DNA of 32,000 nucleotides from Candidatus Iainarchaeum sp. (GCA_016205145.1 JACQJH010000001.1:580964-612963), one strand, 5' to 3'; shown: positions 17,665 through 32,000, counted from the first letter of the stretch. Notes: generated from the sequence alone by a model not told the origin. Numbers and translations: made by a program.

Positions 17665-17950
17665 TAAGGGCAGCGGGTGGTAAGCCGCCTTCTGTTCTGA
17701 ACTGGCATCCGTCTAAGCGTGCGACAAAGGCACTTGCACTGCAGCCTTTTCCGGCCGTTTCATCCTCGCGAAAAGAAGCTCAATTTTTTATCATCGTGCC
17801 TTTCCGCGGGTTCGTTTCTGTTCCGGAAAACCGGGAAACCCTTTCGGGTTCCCTTGGCTTAAGCAGTGGGCGGACTTTCCTCAGCCGAAAACCATTGAAG
17901 GTTTTTGCCGCATTGAAGCGGCTTGGCCGTGAGCCAGCCTCCCGCTACCC
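17665..17950 (-). ncRNA. rnpB: RNase P RNA (archaeal)
   Basis: The minus strand reads GGGTAGCGGGAGGCTGG...GGCTGAGGAAAGTCCGCCCAC (CR-I) ...GGATGAAACGGCC...CAGAACAGAAGGCGGCTTACCACCCGCTGCCC. The P1 helix (GGGTAGCGGG with CCCGCTGCCC) and the P4 helix (AAGTCCGCC with GGCGGCTT) can both form. A TATA box is centred about 27 nt upstream of the 5' G. Confidence 0.85.
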
Positions 17951-22071: not shown

Positions 22072-22111
22072 GACGGACTTTCGTTTCATTGTTCGCATAA
22101 CAATTAACTCT

Positions 22112-25080
<2,969 letters not shown>

Positions 25081-25118
25081 AAAGCCAGAAATAACGAACA
25101 ATGAATGAACTTTCTGTT

Positions 25119-25147
25119 CGGAACCGCTTTGTGGGAATGCCTATGCA
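25119..25147 (-). other. 5' arm of the 23S processing stem (bulge-helix-bulge)
   Basis: See 22043-22071. Confidence 0.8.
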
Positions 25148-25557
25148 TGGGGGCAACTTCGTTTCCCCCTATTACCCCCTTCCTCTTTTGAGAACGTAGG
25201 AGATAAAAGAAAGAAAACAATGCTACTCCCCCATAGCCTTCCCCTTGCGGAAAAAGCCATGGTTTGCTTCCATGAAAACTCCTTTCAGAGAACTAATCAT
25301 GGGAGGGCCAACGGCCCAGGTAAACGCACTGATGAAAACCGCAAATGCGGAAAAAAATATGATTTTACTTCTTCGCTTTCTTCTTCGGCCAGCCCTTCGG
25401 CCTGGCTGCAGGCGCTTCAGGCTTTCCGCCAAAAACGCTTTTCACGAAATCCATGAAACCCATTGTTTCAGACTCCCTTTTTTTCTTTTTTTTTTACCCG
25501 GCACATTGCGAAAGCAATGCGCCTTGGTTTCGGCACACGCGCCCGAAAGCGCGTGCT

Positions 25558-25630
25558 TGGACCCGACGGGATTCGAACCCGTGGCCTCCGCGATGCAAAC
25601 GCGGCGCTCTACCAGCTGAGCTACAGGCCC
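25558..25630 (-). tRNA. tRNA-Ala (anticodon UGC), CCA not encoded
   Basis: The cloverleaf folds by hand. Acceptor stem GGGCCTG/CGGGTCC includes the G3:U70 alanine identity pair. D arm is GCTC..GAGC. Anticodon stem is CCGCG/CGCGG with loop TTTGCAT. T arm is ACGGG TTCGAAT CCCGT. Discriminator is A. Confidence 0.93.
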
Positions 25631-25890
25631 TGGCCGGTTTCGTCCGGCCGGTCCGAAGTTGAGGGTTTTCGCAATGCTCAAACCCTCTGCCGGCCAAAAC
25701 AATATGCCAGGAAGACTTTTGCCCAAACTGGTTTTTATCTTTTGTGCCACGGGCAAAGCCCGCGAATACCTATGATTTGCCAACCATTAAGCGGAATTGC
25801 TTTGACCTAGTGCTTACTCGGCGTTTTGCGAAGCAAAACGCCTTAGTTTCGCTTCACGCAGCCGAAACTGCGTGCGGTCGAAAGCGCGTT

Positions 25891-25918
25891 CGGGAAATTA
25901 TAGGTTTGACTCAGCAAG
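25891..25918 (-). other. 3' arm of the 16S processing stem (bulge-helix-bulge)
   Basis: Complementary to 27518-27545. Pairing gives helix CGGGAAA/UUUCCCG, the 3-nt bulge UAA, a 4-bp helix UAGG/CCUA, the 3-nt bulge CAA, and a 14-bp helix with one G.U pair. Confidence 0.8.
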
Positions 25919-25987
25919 AAAGTATGTGCGCAGTCGGGGCCGGCCGAAGCCGGCCCTTCCTGCTTTGCCTGAATTAATCAGGCAATA

Positions 25988-27475
<1,488 letters not shown>

Positions 27476-27517
27476 GGGTTTGAAACTTCAATAGAATTGG
27501 TTTGCTTGCATTTTTGG

Positions 27518-27545
27518 CTTGCTGAGCCAAATTGCCTATTTCCCG
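27518..27545 (-). other. 5' arm of the 16S processing stem (bulge-helix-bulge)
   Basis: See 25891-25918. Confidence 0.8.
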
Positions 27546-27844
27546 AGCCTTCCACTCAAACACAAACACGGTTTTTGCAAACCATGAAAGCATCTGGCAG
27601 GCATCATACCCAAAACAACTTGGGTACTCATGGAGACACGCAGCGCATTGCTTTTGCAATGCGCTTATCGCACCGTCCCGCCGAAACGGGACAGGCGTGC
27701 CTTTTGTGAGTTTAAACCAAGAGCGCCAAAAGGCACTCTTGGAATAAAAATCCCTAATTGCCATGCGTCAAATCGGACGTCATTGCATGGCAACAACAAA
27801 AACCGTACCGGTTTTTTTGCCCTATATACATGCACCACCCGCTC

Positions 27845-27910
27845 TTTAAAAACCTATCGGGCGGGCCGGGCTTGTTTAAAAAGTTCCAAGCGCGGGCTTT
27901 TGTTAAAAAA
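27845..27910 (-). promoter_or_regulatory. three TTTAAAAA-type boxes about 30 bp apart (27845-52, 27875-82, 27903-10): candidate tandem rRNA promoters
   Basis: Read on the minus strand, they match the TTTTTAAA boxes seen upstream of leuS, dinB and RNase P RNA. They lie 370-435 nt upstream of the 16S 5' end. Orientation is ambiguous because the box is nearly palindromic. Confidence 0.35.
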
Positions 27911-27953
27911 GCCCATAAATTGCTTTTTATGTTTTTCCGCCATAAATTTTCAA

Positions 27954-28427
27954 ATGACTAATGCGGATAAAGGGTATAATTTAGTCAAAAAACTCGATAA
28001 TGGAAAAATTGCTTGTTATCAATTTGAATTTGAAGGAAAACCTATTGCGGCATATATAGGGGTTACAGTTGCAAGTGAAAACAAAATTGGTGGAGGCGGG
28101 AAAGTGGGCGCAAATCCTCTTGACCCTTCAATAAGTGCCCAAGCTATGAAAGAAAACAAAACAGAATACCAATGGGAAAAATATACGACTTCTGCATTTG
28201 CGGCAACCCACCCAGAAATCAGAAGTAAGGAAGTAAGATTGGAATTAGATAGGAAAGTTACTCAGATTTCAGGAGTTGCTGTAATGAATGCTCCGATTCA
28301 AGAACTCCCGCCTAACCAAGCTATAATTACGCCTTCGGGGGCGCTTTTGTCTACTTCTACAGGAACACTTCAAGCCAATACTGATTTTACCCTTGATAAA
28401 CTAAAAAAACATTTTACTAAATATTGA
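27954..28427 (+). CDS. hypothetical protein (157 aa)
   Basis: ATG 27954 is the first start inside the AT-rich DNA. The upstream 108 codons of the track ORF run through the G+C-rich rRNA leader and look non-coding. No family recognised. Confidence 0.6.
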   Translation: MTNADKGYNLVKKLDNGKIACYQFEFEGKPIAAYIGVTVASENKIGGGGKVGANPLDPSISAQAMKENKTEYQWEKYTTSAFAATHPEIRSKEVRLELDRKVTQISGVAVMNAPIQELPPNQAIITPSGALLSTSTGTLQANTDFTLDKLKKHFTKY

Positions 28428-28446
28428 AACCATTTCTAAGCCCGCA

Positions 28447-28514
28447 TGCAGGAGACTGCAGGAGGAAGTCTTTTAAAGAGAAACACACACCTATAGTGCA
28501 GGAGAGTGCAGGAG
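28447..28514 (+). promoter_or_regulatory. four direct copies of TGCAGGAG in two pairs flanking a TATA-like box TTTTAAAG (28471-28478)
   Basis: Copies at 28447-54, 28457-64, 28497-504 and 28507-14. Spacing is 10 bp within each pair and 50 bp between pairs. The last copy also supplies an AGGAG ribosome-binding site 4 nt before ATG 28518. Confidence 0.7.
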
Positions 28515-28517
28515 ACA

Positions 28518-29429
28518 ATGTACCCAACTATACCTACTTTAGCCACATTACCAGAAGGCCTTAAACAAGCAGTGGCAGAAAATGACTTGCCATTAGAGGT
28601 AGCACTCCAATTAACCAAATTGAATAACCCGTTTGTAAACGAGAAAATGGTTCAAGTGATAAAAAGAAAAAAGAAATATGAAAGAGACCTTTTGAAAAAT
28701 GCTTTAGCTGCCGTTAAAAAAAGTAGCCAAATGAAAACCAAAATAAATGGATTAAAAAAAATAGTTGATTCAGGAATAACTCTCTCTTCGGTTTGGGATT
28801 TTGGTAACAGAGATAACTATGCAGGCGATGCAAATTTTTATGGAAATGCTCCAACCCAAGTCGTTGAACAGTGTATTCTGAGGCTTACTAAAGAAACTGA
28901 TTTCGTTGTAGACCCTATGGCTGGTTCTGGGACAACAATCGATGTATGTAAGGCATACAACCGAAAAGTCAAAGCGTTTGATTTAACTCCGACCAGAAAA
29001 GAAGTAGTCCAAAATGATAGTAGAAATATCCCTTTGAGAGATTTTTCTACAGATTTAGTTTTTCTTCATCCGCCTTATTGGGATATGGTGAAATACTCTA
29101 TAAAACAAAATGACATATCACGACTTCCTCTAAATAACTTTTTGGATAGTATGACCCAAATCATAAATGAATCTCAAAGAATTTTGAAAAAAGATAAATA
29201 TCTATGTATCTTGATAGGAGATATAGTAAGAAAAGGAAAATTTATTTCACTATCAAGAAAGTTATCAAACATTTGTGAGAACGCAGGATTAGAAGATGCT
29301 GGATACGCAATTAAGATTACAAAAGATTCTACCAGCCAAAGAAGAAGAGGAAAAGCTATATACGCAGAACTTGCGGCAACAAAAAATTTGAAGCAAAATC
29401 ACGATATAATTATGTTTTGGAAAAAATGA
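28518..29429 (+). CDS. SAM-dependent PPY-type amino-methyltransferase (probable DNA N6-A/N4-C methylase) with a ParB-HTH-like N-terminal segment
   Basis: Motif I FVVDPMAGSGTT lies about 52 aa before motif IV LVFLHPPYW, with acidic motif II/III residues between (KAFDL, QNDSRNIPL). The N-terminal LPEGLKQAVAENDLPLEVALQLTKL resembles the helix pair after the ParB HTH. The track start is GTG 28506; ATG 28518 is preferred. Confidence 0.8.
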   Translation: MYPTIPTLATLPEGLKQAVAENDLPLEVALQLTKLNNPFVNEKMVQVIKRKKKYERDLLKNALAAVKKSSQMKTKINGLKKIVDSGITLSSVWDFGNRDNYAGDANFYGNAPTQVVEQCILRLTKETDFVVDPMAGSGTTIDVCKAYNRKVKAFDLTPTRKEVVQNDSRNIPLRDFSTDLVFLHPPYWDMVKYSIKQNDISRLPLNNFLDSMTQIINESQRILKKDKYLCILIGDIVRKGKFISLSRKLSNICENAGLEDAGYAIKITKDSTSQRRRGKAIYAELAATKNLKQNHDIIMFWKK

Positions 29430-30143
29430 TTATTCTTTTGATATTTTTACCAATTCATTTTTTTGTTGTTCGGTTTTACTTTTTTCATATTCTTTTTTTC
29501 CATTCACAAATTCTTGAACTGCATTGTCAGGCAACGGGTGTACCCCTTTCCCATCAATTCGTGCCATTTTTATTTTTCCGCCTACGTCACCATCAATACT
29601 AATTGTTTCAACCATTGTTTTAGCAACTAAAAAACACATTTCATCTACTCCATAATTTTTATCATATTCTTTTGACAGGATATAACGTGCAATGAAGGGT
29701 TTGCCTTCAGCAACTGTATTATCCCCTCTTCCCGAGAAAAACAAATTTTCACTTCTTAAAACATAAATTTTTGGCATAACTTTAGTTTTTATTTTATCTA
29801 ACCCTGCGATAATTATTGTAACGCTTGGAAAACTTTTACTTCGTGGGTTTATAGTATCTGATATATGGGAAATTTCTTTTTTACAAAATCTTTTAAATTC
29901 AGAAACAACATCAGTTACATACCATTTTTTTGTTTTTGAATATTTATATTTAAAATCTTCTATTAACTGCATGGCTATCTCAGGGTCACCTGCAACTAGC
30001 GCACAAGAATAATCAGTCAATTGAATCATTTTTTGCGCAACTAAAGATTCCATTCTCGAACCGTCGTTATCTACCCACGTTCCTTTACTATCCGCAGCGA
30101 GAACTAAATAATCTTTTCCAGATACCGCAATAACAAGTGTCAT
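29430..30143 (-). CDS. stand-alone proteasome-beta/HslV-like Ntn peptidase
   Basis: Begins MTLVIAVSGKDYLVLAADSKGT. This places Thr directly after Met (Thr1) and Asp at mature position 17, with a QKMIQL lysine matching the Lys33 region. Overall length and block order resemble archaeal proteasome beta (my recollection of the Thermoplasma sequence). It has a K/E-rich C-terminal tail. Confidence 0.7.
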   Translation of the reverse strand: MTLVIAVSGKDYLVLAADSKGTWVDNDGSRMESLVAQKMIQLTDYSCALVAGDPEIAMQLIEDFKYKYSKTKKWYVTDVVSEFKRFCKKEISHISDTINPRSKSFPSVTIIIAGLDKIKTKVMPKIYVLRSENLFFSGRGDNTVAEGKPFIARYILSKEYDKNYGVDEMCFLVAKTMVETISIDGDVGGKIKMARIDGKGVHPLPDNAVQEFVNGKKEYEKSKTEQQKNELVKISKE

Positions 30144-30147
30144 ACTT

Positions 30148-30711
30148 TCACGTTTCCTTATTTACTCTTTGTGTCACAAGACTTGTTACAATTTGATTAA
30201 TAGTTTTATTTTGCTTTTTTGCTATTTTTTTTAATTTTTCAAATTGCTCATTTTCTAAGGAAACAACAACTAAGTTTAATGTGGCTTTTAGCTCCTTTGA
30301 CTTTTTTAATCGATTAATTTGATTTTCTATTGAGACCCCGCGATTATTTTTTGCAAACCTTATCATATCCCTTGCATCGTGTGCACTAAGCCCAACTATT
30401 GAGTTAGCAATTCTTATTTGGTCTTCTTTGTTTTTGATTGCTAACAGCCTCCAACCCAAGTCTTGAGTAATTTTATTTTCTTTTATTAATTGCTTTATCT
30501 CTGATGGCAAATCTAAAAGTTTTATAGTAGAACGAACCATTTCTCTGGACAATGAAAGCAACTTTGCAACTTTTCCATCAGACTTATATTTATCTTTAAG
30601 CTCCTTGAATTTTTCGGCTAAAAATATCCAGTCGTGGGTTTGTTTTCCTTTTGCCTTAAAATTAGAATATATGATGGCAAATATTTCATCTTCATCAACT
30701 TTTTTAGTCAT
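30148..30711 (-). CDS. ParB-HTH-only protein with a C-terminal ribbon-helix-helix-like segment
   Basis: KVAKLLSLSREMVRSTIKLLDLPSEIKQLIKENKITQDLGWRLLAI is a ParB HTH-domain pattern, and no ParB/Srx N-domain is present. The C-terminus LNLVVVSLENEQFEKLKKIAKKQNKTINQIVTSLV fits a beta-alpha-alpha (RHH) pattern. There is an ATGA overlap with the upstream gene. Confidence 0.7.
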   Translation of the reverse strand: MTKKVDEDEIFAIIYSNFKAKGKQTHDWIFLAEKFKELKDKYKSDGKVAKLLSLSREMVRSTIKLLDLPSEIKQLIKENKITQDLGWRLLAIKNKEDQIRIANSIVGLSAHDARDMIRFAKNNRGVSIENQINRLKKSKELKATLNLVVVSLENEQFEKLKKIAKKQNKTINQIVTSLVTQRVNKET

Positions 30712-31541
30712 TCTTCTTGTCCCCTAACGTAACCCTTGATTATTTCGGTGAGAAGGTCTTCTATGCCAATTTTATTTTTACTATTGTTTGCAATTCCTTG
30801 AATTTTATCGAAGTCAGACCTATCAACTAAAACAGTGAGTTTAATTTTTCTGGAAGGTTTTTTTGCCTCGGCTAATATTTCTTCAATAGATGCATCTTTA
30901 TTTTCCATACCCACATCTAGTATATTATCCCATTCTGGTTTTGTCATTCCTATCATATGTCTTGCAATTTTCACGATTTTTTCCGATTTTGGCCAAAAAG
31001 CAGTAGTTAATTTATAGGCTTGTTTCGGGTCAAGTTTTTTTTCAGCTACCATGTCTCTTACTTCTTTTGGTATGATTCGGTAAGAGAGATATTTAGTAAC
31101 TGTTTGAAGAGATAAACCAACATCCGCAGCTACTTGTTCTAATCTCTTTGATTGCGTCCCCGTATACTTACTAAATAATTCATCACATACTCTAATAGTG
31201 TCATTATACGGCAGTTTTGTTCTATTGACATTTTCAGAGAATGAAATAATTCTTTTTGTTAACTCATTAACATTATTGATTAATATTGCTGGAATTTCTT
31301 CTCGTTTTAATTCTTCGAATGCCCTAAATCTTCTTTGCCCTACAAGAACTTTGAATTTTTTATTTCCTTTTCCTTCGGTTAAAAGTATGGGGTGGATAAG
31401 TCCGACATTTTCTATACTCGCTTTTAGCACATCTAGATTATTTTTTCTACCTTCAGTTCTAACATTTAAAGTGTCAACTTCAATATCGTTAATGTTTGCT
31501 TCAAAATATTTTCTATCTTTTATATAGTCAAGTGTAGCCAT
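30708..31541 (-). CDS. ParB/Srx-domain protein with HTH and a C-terminal ribbon-helix-helix-like segment
   Basis: The ParB N-domain shows the arginine patch VLVGQRRFRAFEEL (GxRRxRA type) and IHPILL. The HTH is QVAADVGLSLQTVTKYLSYRIIPKEVRDMVAEKKL. The C-terminus is KLTVLVDRSDFDKIQGIANNSKNKIGIEDLLTEIIKGYV. ATG 31541 is preceded by AGGTGA. The track start at 31568 is less likely. Confidence 0.8.
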   Translation of the reverse strand: MATLDYIKDRKYFEANINDIEVDTLNVRTEGRKNNLDVLKASIENVGLIHPILLTEGKGNKKFKVLVGQRRFRAFEELKREEIPAILINNVNELTKRIISFSENVNRTKLPYNDTIRVCDELFSKYTGTQSKRLEQVAADVGLSLQTVTKYLSYRIIPKEVRDMVAEKKLDPKQAYKLTTAFWPKSEKIVKIARHMIGMTKPEWDNILDVGMENKDASIEEILAEAKKPSRKIKLTVLVDRSDFDKIQGIANNSKNKIGIEDLLTEIIKGYVRGQEE

Positions 31542-31549
31542 ATAGTCAC

Positions 31550-31846
31550 CTAGTGGGTGGCATTCCAATTATCTCGTAAATTTTTCCATTCTTCAATAGT
31601 TATTTCTTTTCTGCCTAATTTACTATTTATCTCAGAAATAAAATCGCCATAGTCTTTAACTTTTTTATCTTTTTGTTCAGCCTTTTCCACTTCCGAACTT
31701 AACTGTTCAATATCTTTGATGTCGTGATTTATCGAAAAGTGTTTCAGGATATCCTTAAATTCGCATTTACAAATTGGGCAAAAATTATTTGTCAATCTAC
31801 CACCTTGTTTTTTGTCTTTTTGAAACCCCTTTGACTTAAAGCCCAC
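31550..31846 (-). CDS. small C2H2-type zinc-finger protein
   Basis: CPICKCEFKDILKHFSINH gives the pattern C-x2-C-x9-H-x4-H. The maximal ORF starts at GTG 31846. The more likely start is TTG 31795, which overlaps the TGA stop of the upstream 50-aa ORF (TTGA) and follows AAGGTGG. Confidence 0.6.
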   Translation of the reverse strand: MGFKSKGFQKDKKQGGRLTNNFCPICKCEFKDILKHFSINHDIKDIEQLSSEVEKAEQKDKKVKDYGDFISEINSKLGRKEITIEEWKNLRDNWNATH

Positions 31847-31944
31847 TTAAAAAGCTTGGTTGGGCTTATTTGATTATTTTCAAGAAACTTCTTTTCATCG
31901 TTAGTTAAGGAAACGGAAACCCATTTAATTCCAGAATTAGCCAT
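31792..31944 (-). CDS. 50-aa ribbon-helix-helix-like protein (below the ORF-track size cut-off)
   Basis: Hand translation gives MANSGIKWVSVSLTNDEKKFLENNQISPTKLFKWALSQRGFKKTKNKVVD. The beta strand (KWVSVSL) followed by two helices fits an RHH pattern. It is the first gene of the operon and sits downstream of an AT-rich, TATA-rich region (31945-32000). Confidence 0.5.
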   Translation of the reverse strand: MANSGIKWVSVSLTNDEKKFLENNQISPTKLFKWALSQRGFKKTKNKVVD

Positions 31945-32000
31945 ATATGCCAAATTATATAAGTTATACAATAACTTTAAAAGCTTATTATATTATATAA

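Follow-up and report, generated by a model that had tools for sequence, protein, structure and literature searches.

What brings two ParB-type proteins, a zinc-finger protein, a stand-alone proteasome-like peptidase and a DNA methyltransferase (MTase) together at the end of an archaeal contig? The question is raised by a stretch of 32,000 nucleotides from Candidatus Iainarchaeum sp. (G000:C1:580964-612963; hereafter the window), whose end is the end of contig C1. The archaeal host genome, obtained from groundwater metagenomes, comprises two contigs, C1 and C2 (1.25 Mb in total, 97.8% complete, GC 0.51), and the genomes nearest to it among those compared belong to the same order only, at 70% identity or less. 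Near window position 27900, the GC content drops from ~0.51 to ~0.31 and stays low up to the contig end, and the genes in question are located there. In the original prediction they formed an operon of an undescribed system. They proved to be not a chromosomal operon but the cargo of a transposon, and the low-GC contig end is this recently inserted element together with its cassette. The structure of the locus, i.e. the transposon, the conserved cassette and the shared operator, is secure. Its function we infer: tentatively, we read the cassette as a self-regulated, modification-linked conflict or addiction module that uses the peptidase as its output.

The two ends of the transposon are located on different contigs. 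A 17-nt terminal inverted repeat (GGGCTTGTTTAAAAAGT), which has only two copies in the whole genome, marks the left end on C1 and, as a perfect reverse complement, the right end on C2. The 9-bp target-site duplication GGGCGGGCC directly abuts both ends as a direct repeat, and right outside both terminal repeats the GC content is back at the host level (Table 1). By our own estimate, a perfect inverted match of 17-19 nt between spaces of 1.3 kb and 0.6 kb arises by chance about once per 10^4 to 10^5 trials, and chance becomes untenable because the target duplication matches as well. Since the inverted repeat and the target duplication both span C1 and C2, the end of C1 joins the start of C2. 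The gap between the contigs is probably shorter than ~100 bp, because the region between the RHH and transposase genes measures 94 bp in the related locus L004 (see below) and the open reading frame (ORF) of the transposase is near-complete; its match to PF01609 (67.8 bits) covers C2:558-1097. Window 27868-32000, the short gap and C2:1-1206 make up one ~5.4-kb DDE transposon of the IS4/IS5 type. The insertion point is ~390 bp upstream of the 5' end of the host 16S rRNA, with window 27475-27867 in between; the rRNA promoter region of the cell would be within reach of any ParB spreading or read-through that starts in the element.

An assembly chimera, or a set of unrelated passengers, would be the simplest explanation of a sharp GC break at a contig end, and the right part of the island does have a lower depth than its left part. 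We give this explanation practically no credence and regard it as refuted: the target-site duplication is shared across two contigs, the synteny of the cassette is kept across phyla at 30-60% protein identity, and separate assemblies of three sequencing runs from the same study yielded contigs that bridge the left junction between host and island (X1, 2669 bp, and X2, 1953 bp, with 0 differences each; X3, 993 bp, with 7 differences). Among the runs listed as containing the stretch, none is an RNA run. An artefact, which the original prediction had left open, is thus excluded. Note that contigs of runs X2 and X4 match up to window 29948, inside the peptidase gene, and then continue with 255 nt of unlike sequence, and that contig depth is ~39 over the left part of the island and 14-23 over the right part. 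This divergence and the drop in depth could stem from a variant or rearranged copy present in the community, or from an AT-bias in coverage.

Table 1. Features of the element, its cargo and its surroundings (window positions, unless contig C2 is given)
Feature	Position	Strand	Remarks
Target-site duplication GGGCGGGCC	27859-27867; C2:1207-1215		9 bp; left and right copy
Left terminal inverted repeat GGGCTTGTTTAAAAAGT	27868-27884	plus	17 nt; perfect reverse complement at C2:1190-1206
Subterminal repeat GGGCTTTTGTTAAAAAAGCCC	27894-27914; C2:1138-1158		21 nt, near-palindromic; two copies
orf157	27954-28427	plus	157-aa ORF, no known family
MTase operator/promoter	28447-28514	plus	two pairs of TGCAGGAG boxes, at 28447, 28457, 28497 and 28507
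MTase	28518-29429	plus	303 aa, N6_N4_Mtase
Peptidase	29430-30143	minus	237 aa, stand-alone proteasome-beta-like Thr1 peptidase
ParB-HTH	30148-30711	minus	187 aa, ParB paralogue; ParB-type HTH and C-terminal RHH-like strand-helix-helix
ParB	30708-31541	minus	277 aa, full ParB; ParB_N, HTH, C-terminal RHH-like tail
ZnF	31550-31795	minus	C2H2-type zinc-finger protein with helical tail; 81 aa from TTG, 98 aa if GTG 31846
RHH-like protein	31792-31944	minus	50 aa; 77% identical to the L004 protein at the same position
RHH/transposase divergent promoter region (part)	31945-32000		holds TTGTATAACTTATATAA, also upstream of the RHH gene in L004
Transposase ORF	C2:3-1190		DDE_Tnp_1; contig C2 opens inside the ORF
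rRNA operon	22111-27474	minus	16S, tRNA-Ala, 23S
RNase P RNA	17669-17949		

Like the insertion sequences of the IS4/IS5 superfamily that have passenger genes, the element combines a DDE_Tnp_1 transposase with terminal inverted repeats and a 9-bp target duplication; it differs in that its passenger genes number 5-6. In a survey of 2019, transposons with passenger genes had not been detected in archaea as of that time (PMC6563490). Transposases homologous to that of the element also adjoin related cassettes, at the loci L004, L005 and L012/L022. In L005, an imperfect 39-nt pair of terminal repeats encloses everything from the transposase through to the MTase promoter, and in L004 a candidate pair of 18 nt, in which two positions mismatch, lies directly beyond the transposase and a PIN gene; a search for terminal repeats at L012 and L003 yielded nothing convincing. 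The host genome contains four further low-GC islands (GC 0.31-0.39; C1:388-391 kb, 511-514 kb and 564-570 kb, and C2:405-409 kb), which may be other foreign insertions.

The seven ORFs of the cargo, including the five coupled genes on the minus strand, and their junctions are as originally described. The RHH and ZnF genes share a TTGA overlap, an 8-nt gap with AGGTGA across the TAG stop leads from ZnF to ParB, ParB and ParB-HTH share an ATGA overlap, and 4 nt separate ParB-HTH from the peptidase, whose stop adjoins the convergent stop of the MTase with zero intergenic bases. Profile searches confirmed the families proposed for the four larger proteins (ParB_N, HTH_ParB, Proteasome and N6_N4_Mtase). 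The two small proteins are less readily classified. For the 50-aa RHH-like protein, no profile of Pfam, PHROGs, NCBIfam or PADLOC matched, and its strand-helix-helix is read from its conserved sequence pattern. ZnF has no family in these four collections either, and the ESM Atlas gave only clusters without names; its pattern CPxC...H-x4-H is invariant across loci.

ParB matches PF02195 (ParB_N; 48.4 bits, cut-off 26.3, E 1e-12) and TIGR00180 (71.9 bits, cut-off 58.45, E 5e-20) as well as HTH_ParB, and is the single occurrence of the ParB_N domain in the host genome. Its solved relatives in the PDB include Noc (7ng0, E 6e-12), ParB (7bnk) and KorB (8qa8), and Spo0J was aligned as well. In particular, its motifs GQRRFRA and ENVNR are in register with GERRWRA and ENLQR of Noc, i.e. 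with the CTP motifs GxxRxxA and ENxxR, which are invariant across 10 loci. By these motifs it looks like an intact, canonical CTP-type ParB and is predicted to bind CTP. The paralogue, ParB-HTH (HTH_ParB, E 2e-11), has no N-terminal CTPase domain; the region from the HTH to the tail is common to both proteins (E 1e-6), and KorB is also among its solved relatives. In its predicted fold, a ParB DNA-binding domain precedes an extended segment, after which come two helices. The tail matches RHH_4 at 21.8 bits (E 2e-4), under the Pfam cut-off of 25, and the 'Arc-like' family phrog_582 with E 0.006.

The peptidase matches PF00227 (Proteasome) with E 2.7e-10. It begins with MT, without a propeptide, and ends in a family-specific helical extension. 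The residues T2, D18 and K38 (gene numbering) correspond to T1, D17 and K33 and are invariant in 20 sequences; because M1-T2, D18 and K38 are so strictly kept, the active site appears intact and free of a propeptide, and the protein is predicted to be active. The structure model (pLDDT 88) has target-normalised TM-scores of 0.80-0.84 against the T. acidophilum beta subunit, and the best solved profile match is the M. jannaschii beta subunit. Both profile and fold searches put archaeal and eukaryotic beta subunits first, which rules out an HslV-like identity. PADLOC, PHROGs and NCBIfam offered nothing beyond the generic proteasome family. A word index found ~20 homologues, and the full profile scan gave 70 clusters (50% identity) with E <= 1e-30.

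Since the closest solved relatives are archaeal 20S beta subunits and not HslV, the peptidase might be a variant beta subunit that joins or poisons the alpha rings of the host, retargeting or disabling host proteolysis for the benefit of the element. The canonical alpha and beta genes of the host lie elsewhere in its genome, and the hosts so far are all archaea, as this explanation would have it; the cassette itself has no alpha-subunit gene. We nevertheless consider it quite improbable. It leaves the strict link to two ParB proteins and a modification gene unexplained, and the peptidase has no propeptide and a C-terminal helix, as in the stand-alone homologues that form rings (PMC8665760). 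A gene for PAC2, a proteasome assembly chaperone, lies ~1 kb downstream of the cassette peptidase of Nitrosotalea on the opposite strand (L017:4101-4877); this is probably a coincidence.

The MTase matches PF01555 (N6_N4_Mtase; E 8e-20). Motif I (DPMAGSGT) precedes motif IV (HPPYW), whose unusual first residue is conserved in relatives. More distant homologues are annotated as TRM11-like, and the sequence would be compatible with a target in DNA or in RNA. The ParB-HTH-like N-terminus that had been proposed for the MTase is indeed of ParB HTH origin; however, it is not an intact HTH. A full HTH is ruled out, as the alignment covers only ~38 residues and pairs them with the helices downstream of the ParB HTH, and the N-terminal segment of ~40 aa is a remnant: close relatives are full ParB_N-HTH-MTase fusions (480-514 aa, 49-58% identical to the window MTase). 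These fusions adjoin GHKL-ATPase-like proteins of ~780 aa and have no peptidase beside them. We examined two such loci, L045:826-6979 and L047:3-5641, in which the fusion lies beside a ~780-aa GHKL (HATPase_c_3) protein. L045 additionally contains a ~320-aa unknown protein and a LAGLIDADG/HTH protein, and L047 a DDE_Tnp_1 transposase. Such pairs of a fusion and a GHKL protein may constitute a separate, uncharacterised modification-linked module.

Far from being an orphan, as first thought, the MTase is the best-conserved cassette member in the closer loci (55-77% identity), and each cassette locus examined has a modification gene. In other lineages the place of the MTase is taken by a PAPS-reductase-like enzyme (PAPS_reduct; L014-L017 and L035), which matches the phage family phrog_424 (E 1e-38). 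Its gene heads the operon in L014-L017 and occupies the convergent position in L035.

The core of the cassette (ZnF, ParB, ParB-HTH/RHH and Thr1 peptidase) is found in at least 10 independent loci of several archaeal phyla, so that the co-occurrence on which the original prediction depended holds well outside the window. These loci come from an Aenigmatarchaeota metagenome-assembled genome (L003/L013), where a 4-kb island of GC 0.26-0.30 stands amid housekeeping genes of GC 0.44, from Micrarchaeota (L012/L022-24), Bathyarchaeota (L014-16) and Nitrosotalea (L017), and from metagenome contigs (L004, L005-7, L025/26 and L035). Identity to the window proteins is 37-57% for ParB, 31-60% for ParB-HTH, 29-54% for the peptidase and 30-56% for ZnF, and the order of small protein, ParB_N protein, HTH_ParB protein and peptidase is the same in all contigs of the closer set that were examined. 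More distant peptidase relatives (those with E 1e-28 to 1e-17, and G122 in the host phylum) have other neighbours and no ParB context, and we therefore regard the ParB-linked peptidases as a distinct clade. In the host phylum, the peptidase profile matched two of 215 species genomes; the cassette is present only in the host genome, and the second match has no ParB neighbour.

Genes of restriction-modification (R-M) systems and toxins are frequent neighbours: L005 has a PstI-type R-M pair as well as a type I system, L014 has HsdR, L022 an MmeI-like gene and L004 a PIN gene. Instead of a DDE transposase, L025 has a second N6_N4 MTase and a phage-integrase fragment after the cassette (L025:10820-12526), and in L035 an IS240-type transposase adjoins it; the cassette is thus found beside several kinds of mobility gene.

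The 157-aa ORF upstream of the MTase, included in the original prediction, is variable cargo outside the conserved cassette. We exclude it from the system because the gene upstream of the MTase differs between all loci: this position is occupied by orf157 here, by the PIN gene in L004 and by unrelated ORFs or none elsewhere, and no orf157 homologue was found in the other cassette loci. It has no match in Pfam, PHROGs, NCBIfam or PADLOC, its ESM Atlas and recognition scores are low, and its GC content (~0.40) exceeds that of the remaining island, so that the ORF may be spurious. A 265-aa ORF (window 27630-28427) that reads from host DNA over the terminal repeat into orf157 is a junction-spanning artefact.

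In addition to the genes, an operator is shared between loci. As described from the window, four TGCAGGAG repeats are present at the promoter of the plus-strand genes, and they are not random (six copies in the window versus 0.85 expected); as pairs, they are found at no other place in the 1.25-Mb genome. The promoter in question is that of the MTase: the box pairs flank the TATA-like TTTTAAAG (28471-28478), and the proximal pair ends 3 nt before the MTase ATG. The same layout of boxes and TATA is repeated at the MTase promoters of L004, L012 and L025, and is degenerate in L005. Four-box clusters of the form (T/C)GCAGGA(G) also stand upstream of the PAPS-reductase genes in L014, L015, L016 and L035. 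In total, 8 of the 10 loci with a readable modification-gene promoter have a four-box cluster there, and it is the sole such cluster of the locus. The boxes were absent from the two ParB-MTase fusion loci without peptidase (L045 and L047). They are found in both cassette types and missing from the core-less fusion loci; therefore, they belong to the ZnF/ParB/ParB-HTH/peptidase core and not to MTase specificity. A second GCAGGA cluster, at C2:252073, is a low-complexity coding repeat and irrelevant.

Because its HTH segment QTVxKYLSYR is near-invariant over both cassette types, ParB is a good candidate for the reader of the boxes. RHH domains would also suit direct 8-bp repeats with a 9-10-bp period. 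The region that separates the RHH gene from the transposase gene contains a second conserved motif, TTGTATAAnTTnTATAA, both here and in L004. The regulator at the head of the operon differs in L005, where an AbrB-like 57-aa gene replaces the RHH and ZnF genes and has four copies of the palindrome TCTATATAGA upstream of it, between the transposase and the cassette operon (L005:1088-1200); this has the look of a regulator exchange in which the new regulator has an operator of its own.

Most of these observations could be explained by the leading alternative to our reading, a regulatory circuit alone, in which ParB is a KorB-like, CTP-dependent clamp and repressor that, with its paralogue, ZnF and the RHH protein as co-repressors, silences the modification gene and the transposase. 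The peptidase would then resemble ImmA and destroy the repressor on a signal, and the payload would be the modification enzyme, e.g. for anti-restriction protection of the element DNA in new hosts. The placement of the boxes around the TATA box and start codon of the modification gene, whichever the cassette type, the second conserved operator between the RHH and transposase genes, KorB as a solved relative of ParB and its paralogue, and the exchangeability of the small upstream regulator, as in L005, all agree with such a circuit. However, 3 kb of conserved regulators would be uneconomical for a payload of 0.9 kb, and the MTase clade elsewhere pairs with large GHKL-ATPase proteins, which are effector-like rather than regulator-like. 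On balance, we regard a circuit of this kind as possible but somewhat unlikely.

The boxes might alternatively serve as the centromere of an excised or plasmid form of the element that is partitioned without ParA. ParB is of the canonical CTP type, and type Ib centromeres are typically direct repeats bound by RHH proteins, which the direct repeats at the boxes recall. As the original prediction had noted, ParA and ParM are missing: there is no ParA, ParM or other NTPase gene between the two terminal repeats, and a parA beyond the window is excluded, since what follows is the DDE transposase and the terminal repeat. In L005, a ParA-like gene does lie 2 kb from the cassette; it is outside the inverted repeats and is not conserved. 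Moreover, the element sits in the chromosome, flanked by a target duplication, the boxes coincide exactly with a promoter, and partition leaves no role for the peptidase or the modification enzyme. We therefore hold this explanation to be very improbable.

No description of the cassette was found in the literature that we searched on ParB with proteasome, PAPS reductase, defence or archaeal transposons, which agrees with the original claim that no described system has this composition. In PADLOC-DB 2.0, the only significant matches are those of the MTase to MTase_II models; ParB weakly matches the ParB part of one MTase model, and ParB-HTH and the peptidase have no match.

The most similar described genes are those that couple ParB with DNA modification. 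ParB_N-HTH-MTase fusions occur in phages, plasmids and archaeal mobile genetic elements (phrog_498), and include the 'ParB-methylase' Bce_0392 of B. cereus (cited in PMC5512222). They share with the cassette the ParB/Srx domain and the MTase family, and both ParB and MTase of the window match phrog_498. In contrast to the fusions, ParB is here a separate and complete protein with an RHH-like tail, accompanied by a ParB paralogue, ZnF and a Thr peptidase, whereas the two fusion loci that we examined have neither peptidase nor boxes. The PAPS-type cassette resembles the IbrA/IbrB-type pairs in that it couples a phage-type PAPS-reductase-like protein with ParB, and systems of the DndB/DndC and DpdA/DpdB types likewise have a ParB partner of a DNA-modification enzyme. 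IbrAB have been called prophage transcriptional regulators (PMC8813620), and DndB has been discussed as a regulator of the ParB superfamily (PMC10853773). Unlike the cassette, the Ibr, Dnd and Dpd types are without a proteasome-like peptidase, a truncated ParB paralogue and ZnF, and sulfur-mobilising or deazaguanine genes are missing from the cassette. With KorB/KorA of RK2 and the Noc and Spo0J clamps, the cassette has in common a ParB_N domain with GxxRxxA and ENxxR, the HTH fold and promoter-located sites, which here are candidate sites. It differs from them in its archaeal host, the lack of ParA or IncC, an RHH-like C-terminus instead of the canonical ParB dimerisation domain, and candidate sites that are 8-bp direct repeats and not 13-16-bp palindromes (parS, NBS, OB).

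The peptidase has its counterparts among the stand-alone proteasome homologues, i.e. HslV, Anbu, BPH and the 22 groups of Fuchs, Alva and Lupas (2021), which include the archaeal groups WPH and ACC with their C-terminal coiled coil. It shares with these homologues the beta fold, Thr1 after Met, D17/K33, a C-terminal helix and the absence of an alpha partner at the locus. That study found no function-suggesting genomic context for any of the new proteasome homologues (PMC8665760), whereas the clade of the cassette peptidase has a strict context of ParB and DNA modification. Type II R-M systems with controller (C) proteins also provide a parallel: a convergent modification gene with an operator at its promoter, a small DNA-binding regulator heading the partner operon, mobility and defence-island neighbours. 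However, no restriction endonuclease or other nuclease domain is detected here, and the partner operon is one of genes for ParB proteins and a peptidase. The cassette can be classified as a variant among the ParB-plus-DNA-modification modules of mobile elements. None of the described systems nearest to it unites ParB with a proteasome-like peptidase, and the possibility that the cassette represents a system of a new kind is a real one.

We return to the self-regulated conflict or addiction module, the reading that we tentatively favour. In this scheme, a DNA-binding protein of the core, most likely ParB and/or the RHH tails of ParB and ParB-HTH, would bind the boxes and repress the modification gene by feedback, and ParB would also use the boxes as the loading site of a CTP-gated clamp. 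ParB would work physically with the modification enzyme on DNA; this cooperation is suggested by the close MTase relatives that are covalent ParB_N-HTH-MTase fusions. The ParB pair might sense DNA or its modification state, and the peptidase, rather than a nuclease, would execute or reset the response. A 'modify or pay' logic like that of R-M systems, serving addiction and/or defence, would benefit the transposon. One core that is combined with two unrelated modification enzymes, and an MTase clade that is found with other large partners, fit a two-module conflict or addiction system, and so do the tight promoter control, the mobility, the sporadic distribution and the frequent R-M and toxin neighbours.

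Several points weigh against this scheme. The cassette contains no known toxin domain, no nuclease family was found in any of its proteins (Pfam, NCBIfam, PHROGs, PADLOC), and PADLOC recognises the MTase only. L003 has no boxes, a small RHH-like gene overlapping the MTase start instead, and those of L005 are degenerate only. The viral contig collection contains no relative of the peptidase, and the R-M neighbours may reflect a mere landing preference of transposons. Action of the peptidase on host or cassette proteins, binding of the boxes and reading of the modification by ParB are steps that we infer, and the conservation of the boxes and the co-occurrence of the genes would be explained equally well by a core that does no more than regulate the modification gene. 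Note that the strict conservation of the catalytic residues of the peptidase does not by itself separate the conflict model from the regulatory one.

A bolder version of the conflict module is conceivable, although we consider it unlikely: a novel type of immunity or addiction in archaea, in which a CTP-switch ParB clamp loads at TGCAGGAG, reads whether the mark of its partner enzyme (methylation or a modification of the PAPS-reductase type) is present on the DNA and licenses a self-compartmentalising Thr1 protease, instead of a nuclease, as the effector. If this is true, an orphan proteasome homologue would for the first time have a function assigned to it, and ParB would for the first time be linked to a protease.

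The locus is of interest for several families. The orphan proteasome homologues without a known role number in the dozens; for one of them, the clade of the cassette provides the first conserved, testable gene context, which consists of two ParB proteins, ZnF, a DNA-modification enzyme and a conserved 8-bp box. ParB CTPases are known from partition, nucleoid occlusion and silencing by KorB; an archaeal ParB without ParA that is tied to a peptidase and to DNA modification would broaden the roles of CTP switches. As a cargo-carrying DDE transposon with clean ends, the element represents a class that is rarely documented in archaea, and its cassette has crossed between phyla, small-genome archaea of the DPANN type included. 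Finally, the parts of the cassette mix and match, the core occurring together with either an MTase or a PAPS-reductase-like enzyme, and the MTase in turn alongside either the core or GHKL ATPases, and part swapping of this kind is a pattern that has repeatedly led to new conflict systems.

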